In this document: positions 15,348 through 35,746 of the stretch, in pieces
Layout of the letters: each line of letters begins with the position of its first letter
How positions within the stretch are numbered: the first letter of the stretch is position 1
DNA from: a virus
DNA length: 46,183 bases
Strand: one strand, 5' to 3'
Virus record (IMG/VR): IMGVR_UViG_3300050133_000017
Span: 1 to 46,183 of that record
The notes under the pieces: generated by a model
Told to the model about the DNA's origin: nothing
The model's input: the letters and a program-made list of their open reading frames with translations, nothing else
Databases searched by the model: none
Position numbers and translations under genes: made by a program

Positions 15348-15563
15348 TTAAGGGGCTTGAGGTGTAAGCTTTGGCATAGCGTGAATCGGCGTAGCCCTAA
15401 CGACAAGTTGTCGTCCAAGTCGATAAGAATTCCCAAAAATTGTTAGTCCCATAAATCCTTTCTTGATGTCTTTTCTGCATACCGTCATAAGCCTGCCTTG
15501 GTGTTCAATGCAGTCTCCAACCTTGATGTCGGAGACGTGGACCTCTTCCCGGATAACCTGCAT
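15348..15563 (-). CDS. Hypothetical protein (71 aa)
   Basis: TAATG coupling to the upstream 49-aa ORF. Confidence 0.55.
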   Translation of the reverse strand: MQVIREEVHVSDIKVGDCIEHQGRLMTVCRKDIKKGFMGLTIFGNSYRLGRQLVVRATPIHAMPKLTPQAP

Positions 15564-15712
15564 TACAGCGCGCTAACTACGTCGGCCAAGAAGCGCGCCT
15601 TTGCTTCAGGGTAGGTATTTACGGCGTAATCGAAATGCGCTTCGATCATCGCGGCTACGGACTCCTGATTGAAACCGCCCTTGATCAGCAGGTTGATTAC
15701 TTTAGCTTTCAT
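15563..15712 (-). CDS. Small hypothetical protein (49 aa, MKAKVINLLIKGGFNQ...)
   Basis: ATG 15712 follows GGAGCAAGACGAG. It is the first ORF after promoter 15761-15789 and is below the track cut-off. Confidence 0.5.
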   Translation of the reverse strand: MKAKVINLLIKGGFNQESVAAMIEAHFDYAVNTYPEAKARFLADVVSAL

Positions 15713-15760
15713 CTCGTCTTGCTCCGTTGTTCGTTTCGTTTGTGTTCCCGTTGAATTGAA

Positions 15761-15789
15761 TAATAGTTATGCATAGCCACTATGTCAAC
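15761..15789 (-). promoter_or_regulatory. Family promoter P15: TTGACA-N17-TATTAT
   Basis: On the minus strand: gTTGACAtagtggctatgcataacTATTAT. -35 at 15784-15789, -10 at 15761-15766. Confidence 0.7.
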
Positions 15790-15810
15790 TATACAGACAA
15801 ATAATCTGCA

Positions 15811-15839
15811 AAAAAAAGACCTGCGGGTTAGGCAGGTCC
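15811..15839 (-). terminator. Intrinsic terminator after the Sak4-like gene
   Basis: Minus strand: GACCTGC-ctaaccc-GCAGGTC followed by TTTTTTTT. Confidence 0.8.
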
Positions 15840-25357: not shown

Positions 25358-25387
25358 TTGAGTTGAACGCTTCGTGGGGACTATAAT
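25358..25387 (+). promoter_or_regulatory. Candidate rightward promoter TTGAGT-N18-TATAAT sharing its -10 with P25
   Basis: Perfect TATAAT at 25382-25387, on the opposite strand of the P25 GATTAT (25383-25388). The -35-like TTGAGT is at 25358-25363. Confidence 0.45.
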
Positions 25388-25411
25388 CGCGACAAATAAT
25401 CGTTATGTCAA
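25383..25411 (-). promoter_or_regulatory. Family promoter P25: TTGACA-N17-GATTAT
   Basis: Minus strand: gTTGACAtaacgattatttgtcgcGATTAT. -35 at 25406-25411, -10 at 25383-25388. Confidence 0.65.
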
Positions 25412-25423
25412 CCGGATATACCC

Positions 25424-25879
25424 ATGAAGAAAACCATTTTGCAAAAGACAGCTGATCGGCTGTCAGCGTCACCAGAGGGCACGGTGCTGCTCGACCTCAT
25501 CAATCGGGCCGGAAACCCTAATGAGCTCGCCAGGAAGATCGGCGTGCATGCTCAGCTGGTGCGCCAGTGGATCTATGAGGGCAAAGTCTCCAGACAGGGG
25601 GCGCCAAAGGTAGCGCTGGCATTCAATACCACCCAAGAGGCGATTCGGCCAGATGTCGATCCGGCGGAATGGATTAAGAAGCCTGTTGAGCAGAAGGCCG
25701 CCCGCGTACCAGTCGCCCGCAGTGACGATGCCAAATTTCTTGTTCGGCTGGCCAAAAAGCATGGCAGCGTGAAAGCTGTGTGTGAAAAAGCATCCTGCAC
25801 GGTCGCCGATTATCACACCTGGAAGACTCGCGGTCGCATTCCGGCGATCAAGCTTCCTGCGTTTTTGGCGCTGATTTGA
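25424..25879 (+). CDS. HTH DNA-binding protein (Cro/YdaS-like, 151 aa)
   Basis: HTH-like NELARKIGVHAQLVRQWIYEGKVS. It is transcribed opposite to the surrounding genes. Confidence 0.55.
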   Translation: MKKTILQKTADRLSASPEGTVLLDLINRAGNPNELARKIGVHAQLVRQWIYEGKVSRQGAPKVALAFNTTQEAIRPDVDPAEWIKKPVEQKAARVPVARSDDAKFLVRLAKKHGSVKAVCEKASCTVADYHTWKTRGRIPAIKLPAFLALI

Positions 25880-26745
25880 TGAGCGCCCAACTGGTTCCGC
25901 AGCACATCGTCGACCGTGCCAACGAGGACATTGTTGGCGTGATTCGTGGCTACCTGCCAGATCTGAAGAAAGCCGGTAAAAGCTGGGTGGCGCTTTGCCC
26001 ATTCCACAAAGAGAAGACGCCAAGCTTCGGCGTAGTCGAATCCAAGGATTTCTATTACTGCCAGGGCTGTGGCGCTGGTGGTGATGCCATTGGTTTCGTC
26101 CAGGCCATGAACCCAGGCATAAGCTTTCGTGACGCCATCAAATCCATCTTGGGCGAAATTACGCTTGAGGATGTCGGTCTAGCGCCGCGCAAACAGGTCA
26201 TTCGTGCCACCCGATGCGATCTACCCGCCAGCGCCGAAGACCGCGAAAAATCCGCCGACGTGATGTCGCGCACCCATCTTGTAGAGCAACACACCTATCT
26301 CATGCGAAACAACACAGCTTCCAACACCCCAGTCGCCACCAATGCAAAAGGCGTCCTGGTCGTGCCAATGATCAACAATATCGGCGAGACAGTTAACGTG
26401 GCCGCAATCCTGGTTAGCGGCTCGATCAACTACGCAGCCGGAAAGCCATCATTCGGCGCCACAGCAGTCCTTGAGCCAGAAGGCGAGCATGACGGCAAGA
26501 CGATCATCTGCACTGACTACACGCACGCCTGGCGCATCTGGTGGGCTCAGCGTGGAAAGTCTCGCGTACTGGCGTGCATGGATATCGACAACTTCCGCTG
26601 GATGCTGATCAGTTGTAAGGATCGATACACGCACGTCGGCTGCGATCCTTCTGAAGCCGATGAGCATATTGAATATGGTCGCGGTGTTGTTGCGCTGCCA
26701 GTCGACCAATACGCCAAACTTGACAGGCTGGTGGCAACCGCATAG
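25876..26745 (+). CDS. DNA primase (DnaG-type CHC2 zinc finger)
   Basis: Motif CPFHKEKTPSFGV...YYCQGCGAGGDAIGF. 289 aa. ATGA coupled to the HTH gene. Confidence 0.75.
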   Translation: MMSAQLVPQHIVDRANEDIVGVIRGYLPDLKKAGKSWVALCPFHKEKTPSFGVVESKDFYYCQGCGAGGDAIGFVQAMNPGISFRDAIKSILGEITLEDVGLAPRKQVIRATRCDLPASAEDREKSADVMSRTHLVEQHTYLMRNNTASNTPVATNAKGVLVVPMINNIGETVNVAAILVSGSINYAAGKPSFGATAVLEPEGEHDGKTIICTDYTHAWRIWWAQRGKSRVLACMDIDNFRWMLISCKDRYTHVGCDPSEADEHIEYGRGVVALPVDQYAKLDRLVATA

Positions 26746-27450: not shown

Positions 27451-27479
27451 ATAATCGCACAGCATAATAACTATGTCAA
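27451..27479 (-). promoter_or_regulatory. Family promoter P27: TTGACA-N17-GATTAT
   Basis: Minus strand: gTTGACAtagttattatgctgtgcGATTAT. -35 at 27474-27479, -10 at 27451-27456. Confidence 0.7.
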
Positions 27480-28539: not shown

Positions 28540-29130
28540 TCAGGCAGCACAACCGCTACCGGCGGCGGTCTGCTCGGCGAGCAGTTCCACAGTTACGCGA
28601 AACTCACGGCCTTCAAGATCGTTTCTGTGCCGCAAGTCCTGAGTTAAATCGTTGAAGTCTGGCAGGCCCTCGAAGTATCGGCAAAAAACATGATCGCCCT
28701 CACAGCACGCGCACCTGTTAGCGTCTTCACTTGTGCTGCGCATGAACGTCAGGACGCCGACACCTTGCGCCAGCGCCACCGGCTCGCCTTGGGGCTGGGC
28801 GGCTGCATTTTCAGCGTTCACGCGTTCGATGTATGCAGGAAGAAGGGTCGGTGGAAATGTATCCTCCCACGGCTTCACGTTGCGCTTTGCCGATTCTTGG
28901 AGAAGATCGACATGGCCTACAAGCTCGCGAACAAGGTCATACCAATCCGAAACATCGTAGAACTTACAAAGCGCCGGATCTGGTTCAGCTTGCGATTTTG
29001 CGCAAGGTGCCGAATCAAGGAGGGCGCGCAGTTCGGCGTGAGGAATTCCGAAGCCGGCCTCGAAGCATGCCAGCATTGCCTTATCAATCAGCTCACGCGG
29101 CACGCCGTCAATCGTTTGGTTGGTGGTCAT
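28540..29130 (-). CDS. Hypothetical protein (196 aa)
   Basis: ATGA-coupled ORF. No motif recognised. Confidence 0.55.
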   Translation of the reverse strand: MTTNQTIDGVPRELIDKAMLACFEAGFGIPHAELRALLDSAPCAKSQAEPDPALCKFYDVSDWYDLVRELVGHVDLLQESAKRNVKPWEDTFPPTLLPAYIERVNAENAAAQPQGEPVALAQGVGVLTFMRSTSEDANRCACCEGDHVFCRYFEGLPDFNDLTQDLRHRNDLEGREFRVTVELLAEQTAAGSGCAA

Positions 29131-29489
29131 GGCTTCACATGCTCCGCAGTAAGGTCCTTATCAATCCACACAGCTTTACCAGTGCCTTGGCAGTACCGGC
29201 ATTTGCTTCGCTCAACATGGGTAGGGTCGTCGCAACGGTCGCCGTTACAGCAGTGGTTGCAGCGATCACCGCCCCATACTTTCCAGCCGGTGGGAGGCAT
29301 GCTTTTTTGCACCTCTTGTAGCGTCAGCTCGTCACCCTGGTCAGTCATGGTGAATATAGGGTCAAGTGTCAGATGATCGCCTTGCGCAGCCCAAAGCCAG
29401 CCGTCTGGCGGTGGAAACACAGGCTTTTTGAAGTCGCACCGATTGTCCTTACACCACTGAATCGCTTGCACCCTTGTCGCATCACTCAT
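29127..29489 (-). CDS. Cys-rich protein with a DnaJ-type CxxCxGxG zinc-finger motif (120 aa)
   Basis: C-terminal CNHCCNGDRCDD...CRYCQGTGKA. Confidence 0.55.
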   Translation of the reverse strand: MSDATRVQAIQWCKDNRCDFKKPVFPPPDGWLWAAQGDHLTLDPIFTMTDQGDELTLQEVQKSMPPTGWKVWGGDRCNHCCNGDRCDDPTHVERSKCRYCQGTGKAVWIDKDLTAEHVKP

Positions 29490-29553
29490 AAATCACCTCA
29501 GCAAATCAGTTGTGCCAGTGCCAGCAGGCACCAGAAGTAGGCGGGGAGTTGGG

Positions 29554-29703
29554 TTAGGGCTTCGACTCGCATTCATCGCAACGCCACTCCACATGTGGAA
29601 CGAGCGGGCCAAACAGCCAGAAGCGTTTAGCCATCCGGGCCACCTTCCACAGCTGGCCCCATTCCTTGCAGCGAGGACAGGTGCCGAATGCTTTATTACT
29701 CAT
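29554..29703 (-). CDS. Small Zn-ribbon protein (49 aa)
   Basis: The internal ATG 29703 overlaps the end of the upstream gene. Motif CPRC...CDEC. Confidence 0.5.
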   Translation of the reverse strand: MSNKAFGTCPRCKEWGQLWKVARMAKRFWLFGPLVPHVEWRCDECESKP

Positions 29704-30112
29704 CGCCGTGACCATCTTCTGGCTTGAGTGCGGCGAGAATTTCCATTGCCCTGCGCTTGTCCGCAAAGCTCGACTTGTTGCGTGGCGTAACCTTGATCAG
29801 CAAGGCTAAGGCGGATTCCAGCACATCCACCCGCTCATCCGCTGCGGTCAGGCGCTGTTGCAGGGATACCAGCTCAAGAGTCGAGTTCGGCACAGCCTTG
29901 CGAACCATACTCAACTCTTCCAGCGCCGCGTCACGCTGCCCCTCGATCAGACAAAGCAGGCTCCCGCGATATGCCAAGCTTTCCTTGATTTCAGAAAGCT
30001 CCAATAGCGCCGCGTCACGCTCGGCGGTTACGCGGTCAAGCTTCGATTGCACTTCAAGACGATTACGTTCAGCAGCCTCTGCCATCCGCTTCATTTCCAT
30101 ATACGCGGTCAT
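29696..30112 (-). CDS. Coiled-coil protein (138 aa)
   Basis: ATG 30112 overlaps the upstream stop (ATGA). Repeated ...RDAALLELS.../...RDAALEELS... helical segments. Confidence 0.55.
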   Translation of the reverse strand: MTAYMEMKRMAEAAERNRLEVQSKLDRVTAERDAALLELSEIKESLAYRGSLLCLIEGQRDAALEELSMVRKAVPNSTLELVSLQQRLTAADERVDVLESALALLIKVTPRNKSSFADKRRAMEILAALKPEDGHGDE

Positions 30113-31445: not shown

Positions 31446-31780
31446 ATCTCCAATCGCTGCACGGCCAGCGCCAATCGCTCGCCATCTTCTCTACTCAGTC
31501 GCTCGCCACGTTCAAGCATCGACCTGGCGGCCTCCCAGATCAGCCATTCGTGACGAATATCTTTGTTCTCTTTGTGCTCCTGTTGATGCCGTACTATGCG
31601 GTTTTCGGTCCAAACGAACGTTTCGCCGTCGATAAACGACCCAAAAACACCAGTTTTCTGCATTTTCATCAAAAAACCATTACGCAACTCATCGATCCGA
31701 AACTTCCGAAACCGGAGGTCTTCAGCGGTAATCGGAACCTTGATCCCGTACTGGGCGCGAATGGCTTCTTCGAATGTCAT
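31436..31780 (-). CDS. Hypothetical protein (114 aa)
   Basis: ATGA coupling to the 521-aa gene. Confidence 0.55.
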   Translation of the reverse strand: MTFEEAIRAQYGIKVPITAEDLRFRKFRIDELRNGFLMKMQKTGVFGSFIDGETFVWTENRIVRHQQEHKENKDIRHEWLIWEAARSMLERGERLSREDGERLALAVQRLEMWL

Positions 31781-33342
31781 GCAATGGCTACCTTTCCGGC
31801 TGCGTTGAGGATCAGTTGTCCAGAAAGCAGCATTGAGTCGATGCGGGCGCTCGCCATCTTGAACGATGCTGGCATTGCCTTGAATGGCTTGCGGTTCTTC
31901 GCCTGGAGCGCTGCGGCACGCTTTTCCATTGGCGCCCTGGTCAGCACCTCGATAATGGTTTCTTCCTCGGCCTGGGTGCCTGACTCGCCTGCACTGTTGA
32001 GAATCCCCTTGATGTGATCGGCCAGGCCCAACACGAGATCAATCGATTCCTCAATGATCCAGGTCGGGATGATCTCGGAGACCTTGCAGTCGTTCGACAG
32101 GCACTCAATCACGTAGATGTTTCCGGCAATCTTCATGACGTGCGTTTCGATCTTTGCCAGCCAGCCCATCATCACCATTTCGCCAGCCATCTTCAGGTCA
32201 TACAGGTATGACTCCGTTGAGTTCTTGGCCTCGCGCAGGATCCGATAGCCTTCGTCGGATGCCCGGATGCGGATCAGGTTTTCGGGGTCCATGATCACCC
32301 TGGCGTCATCGTCGGCGGCGTACTGCCTAAGCACGCTATCCGAGTACATGTCGACGCAAGCCGAACAGGCACGCTCAAAAGATTCCTTTTCGCTGCGCGT
32401 CGGGAAATGCCCCTCGTTGCGACGAAAGCCAATCGGATCAGGCTCAGCCAGGTAGATGAAACGTTCGGCCATCCCTGAGCCCCCAGAAGCCGCCAGGACG
32501 CGCTTGCTGCTGCCAGGCTGAGCGATGATCACAACGCAGCCCTGAACCATGCCAGTGAACGCTTTGCGGCCCGCCCGCATACCAGACACGTATTCGCTGG
32601 CGTAGCCCTTCAGTATCAGCTCGTTGGTGCTGGAGAACGAACCGGACTCAGGGAACAGCGATTGCAAGCCAGACTGCTCGGCGCTGGACACGACAAACCG
32701 ACCTTCTGAGCATCCAGAAAGAAAGCCGTCAATCGACGCCGACGTGCCGTCAGATGTCTCGCTGAACGTTCGCTTGATGTGCTGATCAACCGGTATATCC
32801 TTTTCCTTTAGTTCGCGGTTAATGCCACCTACCTTCTTGTTGTGCTGCGCCACACCCAGGCGATAAGGCTTCATTCCGACATCGAGTAAGTAGCTCTTCA
32901 TCATGGCAGGCGGCTGCTCAATGATGGTGTACATGCCAAGCGACACGCACGAGTCAGTAGAATACTGAGTAGCAAATGCCGTCGACACCGAACAACTTGC
33001 GGATGCCAGCAACGCAAAGAACGAACTCACTTCTGGGAATTCAATCTTGTTGTGCACGACACGCGCCAACTTGCCGACAGTAGTATTTGCGATGCGGTCA
33101 CTTAGCTCAAGTAGCGTCGGGATATATTCGGCGTCATCCACAACTTCCTTTTTCACGCGCGGCTTATATTCGCGCCTTGGCTTTACATCTGCCGGAACAG
33201 GAATGTCTTTTGTCGGCGCAACTTCGATGACGCCAATATCAAACGATGATATTGAAAAGTCGTCGTCGTCCGGCATCACTGTCGAATATAACTCGACAGG
33301 AGGAATATCTATTGCGGGCGGATTGCTGATATCGATATTCAT
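31777..33342 (-). CDS. Large early protein, possible replication initiator (DUF3987-like by eye, low certainty)
   Basis: ATG 33342 overlaps the upstream stop (TAATG). 521 aa. It is the second gene of the leftward operon, next to the ori-like element. No clear Walker A seen. Confidence 0.4.
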   Translation of the reverse strand: MNIDISNPPAIDIPPVELYSTVMPDDDDFSISSFDIGVIEVAPTKDIPVPADVKPRREYKPRVKKEVVDDAEYIPTLLELSDRIANTTVGKLARVVHNKIEFPEVSSFFALLASASCSVSTAFATQYSTDSCVSLGMYTIIEQPPAMMKSYLLDVGMKPYRLGVAQHNKKVGGINRELKEKDIPVDQHIKRTFSETSDGTSASIDGFLSGCSEGRFVVSSAEQSGLQSLFPESGSFSSTNELILKGYASEYVSGMRAGRKAFTGMVQGCVVIIAQPGSSKRVLAASGGSGMAERFIYLAEPDPIGFRRNEGHFPTRSEKESFERACSACVDMYSDSVLRQYAADDDARVIMDPENLIRIRASDEGYRILREAKNSTESYLYDLKMAGEMVMMGWLAKIETHVMKIAGNIYVIECLSNDCKVSEIIPTWIIEESIDLVLGLADHIKGILNSAGESGTQAEEETIIEVLTRAPMEKRAAALQAKNRKPFKAMPASFKMASARIDSMLLSGQLILNAAGKVAIA

Positions 33343-33551
33343 TATTCGATCCGCCAAATGCGATAGCCGTCACCCTCTTTACGGCGAGTCATACGGAAGC
33401 CGTTCTGATGCCATTTGGCATACGAGTAGGCCGCGCTTGCACAGCATTCGACCTCGGCAAGCGACGGAAAAAACCGGCTGCCACCAATCGGCCAGTCCTC
33501 AAATCGGTATCGGTTCACCTTCGGAATTGGAACGCCTTCCTGTAAATCCAT
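33342..33551 (-). CDS. Small early protein (69 aa, ...GDGYRIWRIE C-terminus)
   Basis: ATG 33551 follows GGAGAG. The longer track start (33587) would lie 6 nt from the promoter -10. Confidence 0.55.
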   Translation of the reverse strand: MDLQEGVPIPKVNRYRFEDWPIGGSRFFPSLAEVECCASAAYSYAKWHQNGFRMTRRKEGDGYRIWRIE

Positions 33552-33592
33552 AGCAATTCTCTCCACAGTCTTATGTTTCTTACGCAAACCGG

Positions 33593-33621
33593 ATTATGAG
33601 CACACAAGATGCGCAAGTCAA
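33593..33621 (-). promoter_or_regulatory. Leftward early promoter PL: TTGACT-N17-CATAAT
   Basis: Minus strand: tTTGACTtgcgcatcttgtgtgctCATAAT. -35 at 33616-33621, -10 at 33593-33598. Confidence 0.6.
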
Positions 33622-33631
33622 ACTCTTTGTT

Positions 33632-33649
33632 CCCTTAGAGCCCTTAGAG
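33632..33649. repeat. Perfect tandem 9-bp repeat CCCTTAGAG x2 just upstream of the PL -35
   Basis: 33632-33640 equals 33641-33649. It is flanked by the 10-bp direct repeat AAACTCTTTG at 33620-33629 and 33656-33665. Confidence 0.85.
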
Positions 33650-33683
33650 CTCTCTAAACTCTTTGCTCTCTTCGTTCCCCCCT

Positions 33684-33949
33684 TGTGCCCGTAAAAAGAG
33701 CACAGGTCTAGCCCACGGAATACGTGGCCTGTAGCGATTCTGTGCTCTTGTGCTCCTTTTTTTTAAAAAACACCCTTTTTCTATATGAATGATTTCCATT
33801 AACAATAACCACCCATTTTTTTGGATTTGGAAATGTGCGAATGACGGGCACAGGAGCACAATTCGACCAAAATCGCCTGGAGGCCACGTAATACATGGCC
33901 TGGAGCTGTGCTCTTAGGTCGGGCACAGCAAGAGCACAGGCGAGCACAG
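33684..33949. repeat. Iteron array (at least 10 copies of RGCACAR / YTGTGCY) arranged as a large imperfect inverted repeat plus three direct copies; ori-like or operator region
   Basis: Copies at 33684, 33698, 33740, 33749, 33846, 33854, 33906, 33921, 33932 and 33942. The arms 33696-33756 and 33846-33917 align in inverted orientation, including TACGTGGCCT / AGGCCACGTA. Confidence 0.75.
33757..33835. other. AT-rich core between the inverted iteron arms (candidate DNA unwinding element)
   Basis: ttttttttaaaaaacaccctttttctatatgaatgatttccattaacaataaccacccatttttttggatttgg. Confidence 0.5.
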
Positions 33950-34010
33950 CATTTCCTTACCCGGAAGTCAGGTTTTGGATTAGAGGCTGAAATCTATTTT
34001 TGAATGGGTG

Positions 34011-34039
34011 TTGACATGAATCCGCTTGTGGGCGATTAT
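34011..34039 (+). promoter_or_regulatory. Rightward family promoter: TTGACA-N17-GATTAT
   Basis: gTTGACAtgaatccgcttgtgggcGATTAT. -35 at 34011-34016, -10 at 34034-34039. Predicted start near 34046. Confidence 0.65.
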
Positions 34040-34045
34040 GGATTC

Positions 34046-35025
34046 GTGGTGAATAGCTCAACCCGCATTGCGCAGGGTTAGCGCCAACCTGGTATTGGCG
34101 AGCTATCTTGATCTGGCACAAGCACAATAGGCCTGAGATCCAGCAAATGTAATAATTGGGCTTTAAACGGTCTGGATTAAGATGGGTCGCTAGAATTGCT
34201 TGATGTTGATAGAGTAATCAGCGAATTGAATACGGACGTGGAACTCGTCGCCGGAGACGTAAACGGCACAAATTTTAAACGCTTTTTAAATCTGAAGTTG
34301 TTATTCGCATGCCAAGTAAAGGGATTGAGTTGCCGGCAGTTTGCGTGAATATCTGGGTTGCTATGGTGATGTCAATCAGGCGCTGATCTGATCAATCATG
34401 TGTAAAGTCTCTTGGCAATGACCAGTTAGACTCTGGTTACTTGGCAGCCGAATAACAATTACACCGAATATGACTCTAATGTAACGGCAGCATGCGGGAT
34501 TCCAAATCCTTGCAGTGTGGGTTAGAATCCTACGAGTCATGCCAAACACCGATTGCAAGTCGGTTCAACCTGTAAAGTTTGCCCGGAGTCCTCCTAACTC
34601 CTGCGGTCAGGGCGCAATACAGGAAACTTGCTAGCCAAGGGCATCTTCACCTGTTGTGCTGGTAGTCGCGCCAGTGGCGAAAGAGCGATAGACTTGAGAT
34701 GCGTGATTTAGGACGCCAGCCCGCAGATGCGGAAATCGTCTTTATCGGAAAGAATCCAGTCATCGTGTTGGTATGTGATGTGCCAAGGGGATAGATACAA
34801 AGTGGATTCTTTACCGATGCAGATGAATGCGCAGGCTGATGCGATAATCATGAGATGGAGAGATCACCCGGTGTAGCGATACGGTGCGGGTGTAGGGGCT
34901 GAGATGGGTATGGTTAGGTCCCCGGTGATTTATAAAACGAGGCGACACCACCAGCGCGCCTATCCACTCAATGCCTGAGATCAGCACGGGCCATCTGCGT
35001 CAAACCTTTTTGATTTATCCAATTG
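34046..35025 (+). ncRNA. Candidate long noncoding/structured RNA (or long processed leader) containing an embedded tRNA
   Basis: About 1 kb downstream of a consensus promoter with no credible ORF on either strand. Several strong hand-folded helices. The first plus-strand terminator is at 35361-35390. Confidence 0.4.
34470..34544 (+). tRNA. tRNA-Trp: tRNA-Trp (anticodon CCA), slightly non-canonical
   Basis: Hand-folded cloverleaf: acceptor ATGACTC/GAGTCAT, U8, D stem ATGT/GCAT with GG in the loop, anticodon loop TTCCAAA, T stem GTGGG/CCTAC, T loop TTAGAAT (A at position 56), discriminator G and an encoded CCA. Confidence 0.7.
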
Positions 35026-35040
35026 CAATGGAGCTTAAAG

Positions 35041-35334
35041 ATGATGATTGAACGTTGGGCGAGTTATCTCGGAATGGCGCTTGCCATGTGCCTAGGTTCT
35101 TTCACGGCTCACGCAGCCGAGCGAATCGAGTACATCGTGGCGGCCAGTTACAGCGACGGCTGGCACGGCGTCGAAAGCGTCAAGCATGAGCTGACCATGA
35201 CGCAGTGGCGACAGGGTAGTGATACCGGCGCCAGCCATGTCAAGTCCAACCTGATCTCACTCAGCAACCACTTCGGCCTGGTTGGCGCCGCACCGATGGC
35301 TCCACCTGATTGGCCTTCCGCCGTAAACGTGTAA
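35041..35334 (+). CDS. Small secreted protein (97 aa, signal peptide ...CLGSFTAHA/AE)
   Basis: ATG 35041 follows GGAGCTTAAAG. N-terminal hydrophobic signal-like segment. A terminator follows. Confidence 0.6.
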   Translation: MMIERWASYLGMALAMCLGSFTAHAAERIEYIVAASYSDGWHGVESVKHELTMTQWRQGSDTGASHVKSNLISLSNHFGLVGAAPMAPPDWPSAVNV

Positions 35335-35360
35335 GCCATACGCCTGGAAGAAACATAAAA

Positions 35361-35390
35361 AGCCCGCCAATTGAAGCGGGCTTTTTCTTG
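35361..35390 (+). terminator. Intrinsic terminator
   Basis: AGCCCGC-caattgaa-GCGGGCT followed by TTTTTCTT, preceded by AAAAA. Confidence 0.85.
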
Positions 35391-35411
35391 CCTGCAATTC
35401 GATAATTCAGC

Positions 35412-35440
35412 TTGACATAATGGTTATGTGTTGCGATTAT
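35412..35440 (+). promoter_or_regulatory. Rightward family promoter heading the structural arm: TTGACA-N17-GATTAT
   Basis: cTTGACAtaatggttatgtgttgcGATTAT. -35 at 35412-35417, -10 at 35435-35440. Confidence 0.65.
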
Positions 35441-35479
35441 TTGTTGGCGCAATGGAGCGCAATGACAGGAGATAGCACC

Positions 35480-35746
35480 ATGGATCTGCAAGTAAAGCAT
35501 GGAGGGCCAGCATTCCCTGCTGAGGTGGATAACAACACCATCGAAACTGTTGAGGGTTTCTTTGATGAGCCGGTTGCTGCTGGCGAGCGGCATCAATACA
35601 GAGGCATGTCCCTGCGCGACTACTTCGCGGCCGAAGCCCTTCAGGGTATTTGCGCAAGCGGTCCTGGGAGCGACATCAGCAACTCGTTTATTGCAAGTGA
35701 GTCGTACGCCCTTGCCGATGCCATGCTTGCGGAGCGTGCGAAATGA
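35480..35746 (+). CDS. Hypothetical phage protein (88 aa, GMSLRDYFAAEAL motif)
   Basis: ATG 35480 follows AGGAG with an 8-nt spacing. Confidence 0.55.
   Translation: MDLQVKHGGPAFPAEVDNNTIETVEGFFDEPVAAGERHQYRGMSLRDYFAAEALQGICASGPGSDISNSFIASESYALADAMLAERAK

Follow-up and report, generated by a model that had tools for sequence, protein, structure and literature searches.

Among the RNAs that phages make besides their messengers, those of the GOLLD and ROOL classes are large and non-coding, are associated with phages and prophages and often adjoin transfer RNA (tRNA) genes. The tRNA cluster of phage T4 includes the RNAs C and D, and in Stx phages tRNA genes are found downstream of PR'. Smaller elements are known as well: put of phage HK022 is a compact, promoter-near antiterminator RNA of about 70 nucleotides (nt) with multiple hairpins, and the pRNA of phi29, located near packaging functions, combines a three-way junction with complementary loops. 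The boxA motif of the ribosomal RNA (rrn) operons of E. coli has the consensus UGCUCUUUA (PMC6614797). YrlA RNAs mimic tRNA and are encoded beside rsr, the gene for Ro60; their features are a bulged end stem that binds Ro60 and the order T-arm, acceptor-like hairpin, D-arm (PMC4201824). RNAs of the abiF motif, finally, neutralize the AbiF toxin via direct binding (PMC12373285). Here we compare with these systems a kilobase that follows a promoter at 34011-34039 in IMGVR_UViG_3300050133_000017, a viral stretch of 46,183 nt that was analyzed whole (the window; all positions below are window positions unless another locus is named). An earlier note on this DNA had proposed, as a candidate, one large structured RNA with an embedded tRNA. 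Judged by comparison with related sequences, the kilobase is instead a conserved, ordered and strand-specific set of structured non-coding RNA (ncRNA) modules behind a conserved promoter, with a cassette-like turnover. We prefer, with a probability of roughly 0.6, to read the locus as a boxA-protected and processed array of ncRNA cassettes that would also be the leader of the packaging operon.

The non-coding kilobase and its relatives

The kilobase is non-coding. It is the right part of a 1.45-kb divergent control region (33588-35040), a gap between genes of annotated size, and no open reading frame (ORF) of more than 60 amino acids (aa) runs from start to stop within 34046-35025 on either strand. 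Positions 34218-35013 (796 nt) form the longest stretch of the window that is uncovered by stop-free frames of at least 80 codons, the runner-up having 483 nt. The longest stop-free frame in 34040-35040 measures 66 codons, compared to 97 ± 22 in shuffled sequences, about 98% of which had a frame at least as long. When all stop-free stretches were compared to the relatives by six-frame tblastn, matches appeared in every frame and on both strands, internal stops included; the conservation is thus at the level of nucleotides and not of protein. The G+C content is lower than that of the whole window (0.484 versus 0.541), so that the AT-richness claimed in the earlier note holds, but as a modest difference only.

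Relatives were collected along three routes. The 26-mer core of a match at 34048-34123, in the three-way-junction (3WJ) module described below, led to 29 IMG/VR contigs besides phage Medea1. Patterns of the sequence adjacent to the tRNA led to L011/L034, L032 and L033, then to L035-L037 and L061-L071, and the neighboring helicase protein led to nine loci, L052-L060, with 80-98% amino-acid identity. In the annotated phage collection, 3WJ (in Medea1) and the tRNA had matches and nothing else did, and among plasmids only a tRNA-like 52-mer was matched. The pattern of the clamp element had no match in genome contigs, and a pattern of its internal motif gave 14 matches there, in unrelated taxa and mostly in coding-looking sequence, which were judged by eye to be chance. 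The pattern search of metagenome contigs gave one match, L034. One further locus, L031, was discarded as a relative, its 19-mer match lying inside a gene and being due to chance. As all nucleotide relatives are Pseudomonas phages or viral contigs, the window looks like the genome of a Pseudomonas phage.

In the helicase relatives the left-hand gene, a repeat block and the promoter are collinear with the window and show 70-92% nucleotide identity to it. Past the promoter, the kilobase varies among these loci as a mosaic, with single blocks kept, lost or swapped. Where the motifs are present they follow the order promoter, boxA, clamp element E, cargo slot, B190, GCAGAUGCGG, hairpin, D190 and first gene. 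L032, L033 and L034 are consistent with the same order. About 14 related Pseudomonas phages have retained it, and in every relative the modules point in the same direction as promoter, boxA and tRNAs. Even close relatives, with helicases 80-98% identical, hold different subsets of modules and different cargo. One large ornate RNA is not what such independent retention, loss and replacement in close relatives describes; the locus is a chain of independently exchangeable RNA modules and not one giant RNA.

Four domains, namely 3WJ, E, B190 and D190, are, on the evidence of covariation, structured on the plus strand. The covariation that the earlier note had asked for was found, with compensatory changes in 23 of 31, 16 of 41 and 5 of 26 pairs in three formal counts. 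In addition, some G-U pairs are invariant, such as those of columns 34/70 and 119/126 of alignment A6 (B190), which are found in 7/7 sequences. On the opposite strand these pairs would be A-C mismatches, and the fold therefore belongs to the plus-strand RNA.

The structured modules

The 3WJ module comprises about 78 nt (34047-34125; this and the following features lie on the plus strand unless noted otherwise) and is built from an outer helix P0 around the junction P1/P2/P3 together with the small hairpin CUUG-AUCUGGCA-CAAG. The three-way junction previously folded by hand at 34053-34106 turned out to be part of this larger module, in which compensatory changes are found and helix P1 pairs 34053-34059 with 34100-34106. 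Phage Medea1 has an intergenic spot with 96% identity to the 76 nt at 34048-34123. Across Medea1 and the 29 IMG/VR contigs the identity is 92-97%, and the module is nearly invariant, loops included, in over 30 Pseudomonas phages that are otherwise unrelated. In 13 representative sequences its 26 pairs are 96% paired, with 5 compensatory changes compared to 0-1 in slid controls. All one-sided changes in 3WJ pairs lead to G-U, and L060 shows an additional A-U to G-C swap. The close relatives L033, L052-L054, L056 and L059 gave no match for 3WJ, which is thus an optional module that has spread horizontally.

3WJ occupies the 5' end of the array in the window and in L060. Its place in most other phages is the 3' end, directly after D190 or a related hairpin, and D190 itself directly precedes it in 10 other phages. 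The PHROG annotation of the genes flanking this D190-3WJ composite in other phages showed no Q-like antiterminator; one upstream gene is sigma-factor-like (phrog_3282), and the remaining flanking genes carry no functional annotation. A function of 3WJ as attP was considered and rejected, as the module lies inside prophage or viral stretches, mostly not at their ends, and covaries as RNA, and no integrase was seen nearby. Note that the composite RNA of Medea1-type phages is closed by a strong ribosome-binding site (RBS) followed by a minimal ORF (ATG-TAA, or ATG, one codon and a stop); this start-stop element is located about 100-130 nt downstream of 3WJ in L003, L009, L013, L024, L027 and others.

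A leader segment (34126-34279), partly conserved with L034 and L060, separates 3WJ from the boxA-like motif CGCTTTTTAA at 34280-34289, which precedes the clamp stem by 8 nt. We took boxA to be GCUCUUUA(A), lying downstream of a promoter and read on the transcribed strand. At the homologous position, again 8 nt before the clamp stem, at least 8 relatives carry the exact CGCTCTTTAA, and in 20 Medea1-type loci a single same-strand GCTCTT[TA]A is found 0.5-2.3 kb upstream of 3WJ, where the estimated chance rate is about 0.1 per locus. From these motifs, this phage group seems to make general use of boxA-type antitermination. In the 20 loci, which are among L001-L029, there is exactly one boxA-like CGCTCTTTA(A/G) each, with the perfect rrn form TGCTCTTTAACAA in L004, and this implies that antitermination in these lambdoid Pseudomonas phages would be nut-like.

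The clamp element E (34297-34458) consists of the stem GUUGUUAUUCG/CGAAUAACAA and an enclosed cargo of 124 nt. The lower stem and a CA/GC internal loop are invariant and the upper stem covaries; the 31 pairs scored with the window-type cargo are 91% paired, and 23 of them show compensatory changes, compared to 3-9 in slid controls and a level reached in 0/500 shuffles. Inside this one invariant stem we found 14 different cargo variants of 60-190 nt. The last part of the window's cargo is a T-arm-like hairpin (34421-34437) directly adjoining the 3' strand of the stem, a topology similar to that of tRNA or of the tRNA-like domain of transfer-messenger RNA (tmRNA), and its T-loop reads UUAGACU (UUCGACU in relatives). 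In L056 the cargo is a recognizable pseudo-tRNA, in which D-arm, T-arm and an "anticodon" loop of 5 nt can be made out, and in L062/L057 it was called as tRNA-Thr by ARAGORN. Some other cargoes have no T-arm. By these features the clamp cargo is probably tRNA-derived in several variants, that of the window included. The sequence CUGAUCA in E was considered hammerhead-like and dropped, as it had no match in Rfam. A promoter-like TTGACA-16-GATATT on the minus strand (34348-34375) within the cargo is probably due to chance, because the counts of such sites in the region equal the shuffle expectation.

The tRNA recognized in the earlier note was called by ARAGORN as tRNA-Trp with the anticodon CCA at 34470-34544 and matches Rfam RF00005 with 46.3 bits against a gathering score of 29; it has A1-U72, G73 and an encoded CCA. 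The cargo slot that this tRNA-Trp occupies in the window is filled differently elsewhere, with tRNA-Met and tRNA-Trp in L034, tRNA-Asp (before boxA) and tRNA-Ser in L056, a long-variable-arm tRNA-like sequence in L032 and a small protein gene with an RBS in L059, L063 and L064. The tRNA-like sequence of L032 (2775-2865 of that locus) has the anticodon loop UCUAGAU and was called by neither ARAGORN nor Rfam.

B190 (34545-34740) is a domain of eight helices that ends in the invariant CCGC-AGAU-GCGG. Its 41 pairs are 95.8% paired, with 16 compensatory changes compared to 1-2 in slid controls, and the extended hairpin that had been drawn at 34569-34623 corresponds to its covariation-supported helices 2 and 3. 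In L034 the B190 slot holds about 290 nt of different sequence containing an abiF RNA motif (RF03085, 2374-2410 of that locus, 40.7 bits versus a gathering score of 37). This motif is an orphan, with no plus-strand ORF of at least 70 aa within about 450 nt and no abiF gene beside it, and the phage may carry it as an antitoxin mimic directed at abortive infection of the AbiF type.

A long hairpin (34735-34825; -38.5 kcal/mol, minimum free energy (MFE) z = -6.6), conserved in position and variable in sequence, follows B190 and contains the helix 34744-34758/34803-34818 that had been noted before. L034 and L060 have differently sequenced hairpins between the same flanks AAUCGUCUUUAUC and GAUGCAGAUGAAU. 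The last domain before the first gene, D190 (34816-35001), is closed by the helix of GAUGCAGAUG (34816-34825) with CAUCUGCGUC (34992-35001), which is preserved through wobble changes. Its hairpin hp1, GCGCA-GGCUGA-UGCG (34829-34843), has the invariant loop GGCUGA on a stem that covaries as GCGCA/UGCGC, GCCCA/UGGGC and GCCCG/CGGGC. A second hairpin, hpU, GCCUG-AGAUCAGCA-CGGGC (34973-34991), has the invariant loop (A)GAUCAGC(A/U). Both loops are invariant and complementary over 5-6 nt, and a kissing contact GGCUGA/UCAGC between them is possible.

Genomic setting, proposed mechanism and competing explanations

The promoter at 34011-34039 is of the sigma-70 type, TTGACA-17-GATTAT, near-consensus, and has its predicted start at about 34046-34047. 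Its -35 block GGGTGTTGAC is kept in L033, L034 and L032, and GGTGTTGAC recurs in L052-L056 and L059. The assertion that it belongs to the same family as the promoters of the phage operons is borne out by the window, which has 4 perfect copies and 5 near ones where 3.0 were expected and 0/100 shuffles reach 9, and the TTGACA-N17-GATTAT sites look like a phage-specific family of near-consensus promoters. The perfect copies are located at 25383-25411(-), 27451-27479(-), 34011-34039(+) and 35412-35440(+), with an extended similarity TTGACAT...GCGATTAT. The runner-up among the ORF-free gaps (483 nt, 15348-15830) also holds a near-perfect promoter of this family, on the minus strand at 15760-15788.

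Rightward transcription would meet an intrinsic terminator, a bidirectional GC hairpin with a U-run, at 35357-35389, in agreement with the plus-strand terminator previously placed at 35361-35390; no terminator was found between 3WJ and 35357 in the window. The hairpin of this terminator, at the end of the first gene, accounts for a sub-threshold match to Trp_leader in Rfam (35277-35389, 34.7 bits versus a gathering score of 41), which is not an attenuator. Beyond the terminator lies a second promoter of the same family (35412-35440). That first protein gene of the rightward unit (35041-35334) encodes 97 aa with an N-terminal segment resembling a signal peptide, and the protein had no family match in protein annotation scans. 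The rightward plus-strand order continues with the phrog_2201 gene, TerS (36805) and TerL (37446), so that the kilobase is located about 1.8 kb upstream of terS.

The RNA locus is bordered to the left by a block of repeats or iterons (33620-33960, unstranded) with GAGCACAG/CTGTGCTC repeats that lies between the divergent promoters. In it, a 47-nt inverted repeat (33684-33730 / 33881-33927) flanks an A+T-rich core, and we distinguished the repeat families D3, D4, D14 and D19 and the inverted repeats I1, I7, I13, I14, I19 and I21. The block is a candidate origin or operator array. Relatives carry other repeat words in the same place, GATTGAATC in L034, GAGTCTAA/TAGACTCA in L032 and ACACTG/GTGTGG in L033, which suggests phage-specific iterons or operators that would co-evolve with a binding protein. 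The left side of the divergent gap is formed by an 81-aa gene and the gene for a DUF3987 helicase (31777-33357), both on the minus strand; the minus-strand early and replication genes extend leftward from 33587 and also include those for an exonuclease, a helicase, an HNH protein and a ParB-like protein. A primase gene is found on the plus strand at 25876-26745. Apart from the locus, short segments at about 29091-29866 (35-56 nt and longer) are 95-100% identical to several otherwise unrelated Pseudomonas phages (phiAH14a, HU1, PfAn1, UFJF_PfDIW6, phCDa and KT1, plus a phage from a faecal metagenome) and may be another small conserved or mobile element.

In the mechanism we propose, the kilobase would be transcribed as one unit from the promoter at 34011. 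RNA polymerase would start at about 34046 and make the 3WJ module first. The boxA-like site would then load NusB/NusE, by analogy with rRNA operons and lambda nut, and yield a Rho-resistant polymerase; with Nus factors recruited in this way, polymerase could survive about 1 kb without ribosomes. Eight nt past boxA the clamp stem would fold around the tRNA-derived cargo, in a geometry like that of boxA and the 16S processing stem, and processing of the RNase III/RNase P type would free stable small RNAs, namely the cargo RNA and tRNA-Trp. The structured 5' leader left on the 97-aa gene would consist of B190, the variable hairpin and D190, and upon read-through of the terminator at 35357-35389 the 3' domains may also lead the packaging genes. 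With the earlier suggestion that the region is a processed leader of the 97-aa gene, the evidence agrees in part. For the cargo, tRNA supply and tRNA-like or antitoxin-like decoys against host defenses are candidate roles. Pointers to counter-defense are the turnover, a tRNA-Trp that reads a single codon, the cargoes resembling tRNA and the abiF motif of L034, and the invariance of 3WJ, B190 and D190 points towards a role in cis or in binding a partner. Both readings are kept in the combined model, to which the probability given at the outset applies.

Several points weigh against this model. The CGCTTTTTAA of the window has one mismatch (C-to-U) to GCUCUUUA and is, taken alone, within chance. 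The folding energy of the 1-kb region is unremarkable on both strands (z = -1.5 on the plus strand), and 3WJ alone and E alone are also unexceptional by MFE; the structural evidence is covariation and not thermodynamics, and every covariation set comprises only 7-13 related sequences. The position of 3WJ, 5' here and 3' elsewhere, makes a single fixed architecture or function uncertain. The abiF motif was found in a single relative, L034, and not in the window. Given the strong promoter at 35412 past the terminator, the packaging genes may not need read-through from 34011. Finally, promoter, transcript ends and processing are predictions.

A possible but rather unlikely alternative is a purely cis-acting leader, in which 3WJ, D190 or both would serve as binding sites of a late regulator or in the manner of HK022 put RNAs and modify polymerase, mRNA stability or translation for the downstream late genes, with tRNA and cargo as passengers. 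It would account for the position of 3WJ, which in more than 30 Pseudomonas phages immediately precedes the first genes of the late region, among them homologues of the phrog_2201 gene of the window, and usually has D190 or a related hairpin ahead of it. It would also account for the near-invariant sequence of 3WJ, which, loops included, suggests contact to a protein or polymerase. The terminator-like hairpin that follows 3WJ within 20 nt in L034, and the start of 3WJ about 1 nt after the predicted transcription start, like promoter-near put sites, fit the same picture. Nevertheless, 3WJ is unmatched in L033, L052-L054, L056 and L059 and thus dispensable for late expression in this lineage, the window lacks a terminator between 3WJ and 35357, and a hypervariable cargo in an invariant clamp is better explained by trans-acting products. 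The entire function is placed in such products if the locus is taken as an anti-defense RNA island, a view that overlaps the array model and assumes early expression, from a strong promoter, of trans-acting decoys, replacement tRNAs and antitoxin-RNA mimics, the decoys being tRNA-like substrates that would soak up anticodon nucleases or other tRNA-targeting toxins. The differing cargo of phages with 80-98% identical helicases agrees with this, as do the several tRNA-like cargoes with a T-arm beside an acceptor-like stem, the tRNA-Trp, for which an adjustment of codon usage is an unlikely reason as it reads a single codon, and the orphan abiF antitoxin motif in the array of L034 (PMC12373285). 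As a full account we consider it improbable: no defense system or target was identified, B190, D190 and 3WJ are conserved and not diversifying, and the abiF match is a single case, in a relative.

Two further explanations do without functional RNA. Signals at the level of DNA, such as a replication origin, a pac or cos site or recombination sites, would be in line with the adjoining iteron-like repeat block and helicase gene, with terS about 1.8 kb downstream and with the sharp-edged, near-identical 3WJ in unrelated phages, which resembles a mobile or recombination module. However, the conserved G-U pairs and one-sided C-to-U changes fit only pairing in a plus-strand RNA, a T-loop motif and tRNA-like folds are present, and the orientation is common with promoter, boxA and tRNAs in every relative, which makes this explanation very improbable. 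Hardly credible at all is the decay of protein genes that the earlier note had kept as an alternative. It could invoke the small protein gene with an RBS in the tRNA slot of L059, L064 and L063, but that slot holds a well-formed tRNA in the window, and substitutions keep base pairs and not reading frames. The idea is rejected by the two coding tests, the longest stop-free frame of 66 codons being shorter than in about 98% of the shuffles and the six-frame tblastn similarity running through stops.

A more far-reaching interpretation we put forward tentatively and regard as rather doubtful. In it, the locus would be the first described phage RNA-cassette array, where a boxA-clamp socket, together with the tRNA slot and the B190 slot, the latter filled by an abiF-antitoxin mimic in one relative, would present hypervariable, often tRNA-derived RNAs as trans-acting decoys or replacements against RNA- or tRNA-targeting defenses, and 3WJ would be a new protein- or polymerase-binding RNA. 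Conservation at the level of 3WJ across unrelated phages usually marks a specific macromolecular partner, and the turnover of tRNAs, tRNA-like RNAs and one antitoxin motif makes the locus a concrete candidate for RNA-based counter-defense. For annotators, it is a reason against dismissing such gaps as junk.

Comparison with known RNA systems

A cmscan of the whole window against Rfam 15 at gathering scores returned only the tRNA. For 33500-35500, with E-values of up to 10, only the tRNA and terminator-like noise were found, and for 15 relative loci, with E-values of up to 0.1-1, only tRNA plus the abiF motif in L034. The analogy to GOLLD and ROOL drawn in the earlier note thus fails, as neither class has a covariance-model match in the window or its relatives, permissive E-values included, and unlike these classes the members at this locus have no single conserved fold of more than 500 nt in common. 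A literature search for tRNA-like or antiterminator RNAs of Pseudomonas phages returned nothing relevant. The modules 3WJ, E, B190 and D190 hence appear to be undescribed in the searched literature and Rfam 15, and as four covariation-supported modules that have no match in Rfam 15 they represent new RNA motifs.

Put and pRNA, to which 3WJ may be likened from their general descriptions, differ from the situation here in that 3WJ is missing from close relatives and the terminase is a standard TerS/TerL. With YrlA and the tRNA-like domain of tmRNA the clamp shares a T-loop hairpin that adjoins an acceptor-like stem, and a linker containing GG that replaces the D-arm. It is nevertheless not a YrlA RNA, as its parts follow each other as 5' stem, linker, variable domain, T-arm and 3' stem and there is no Rfam match; no Ro60-like protein was seen among about 30 scanned proteins, a scan that was not exhaustive. 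Nor is it a tmRNA: ARAGORN called none, there is no tag ORF, and the stem GCCAAGU/ACUUGGC has C3-G70 and not G3-U70. The decoys of the abiF or pseudo-ToxI type have in common with this locus that L034 carries an abiF motif in the same array, but the window has no match to RF03085, and the role as decoy is conjecture.

The tRNA regions of T4 and of Stx phages share with the locus the presence of tRNAs together with other small structured RNAs or in the leader of late genes, and processing by RNase P is conceivable. In this comparison, which is one of general knowledge, they differ in that no relation by sequence or covariance model exists and that 3WJ, clamp, B190 and D190 have no counterpart. 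The locus as such belongs with these phage tRNA and late-leader non-coding regions, its modules appearing to be undescribed.

The nearest functional analogues are the rrn leader and lambda nut, in a comparison by sequence motif that is imperfect in the window. No boxB or N protein and no boxC were identified at the locus, in contrast to lambda nut and rrn, and the cargo is a hypervariable RNA of 60-190 nt and not rRNA. What is shared is a strong promoter, a motif of the boxA type that reads CGCUCUUUAA in relatives, and a long-range stem around a structured RNA, with its 5' strand 8 nt past the motif, as well as a long and presumably untranslated transcript that would need protection from Rho. 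This layout of boxA and processing stem suggests that phages copied the logic of rRNA operons for the expression of long ncRNA.

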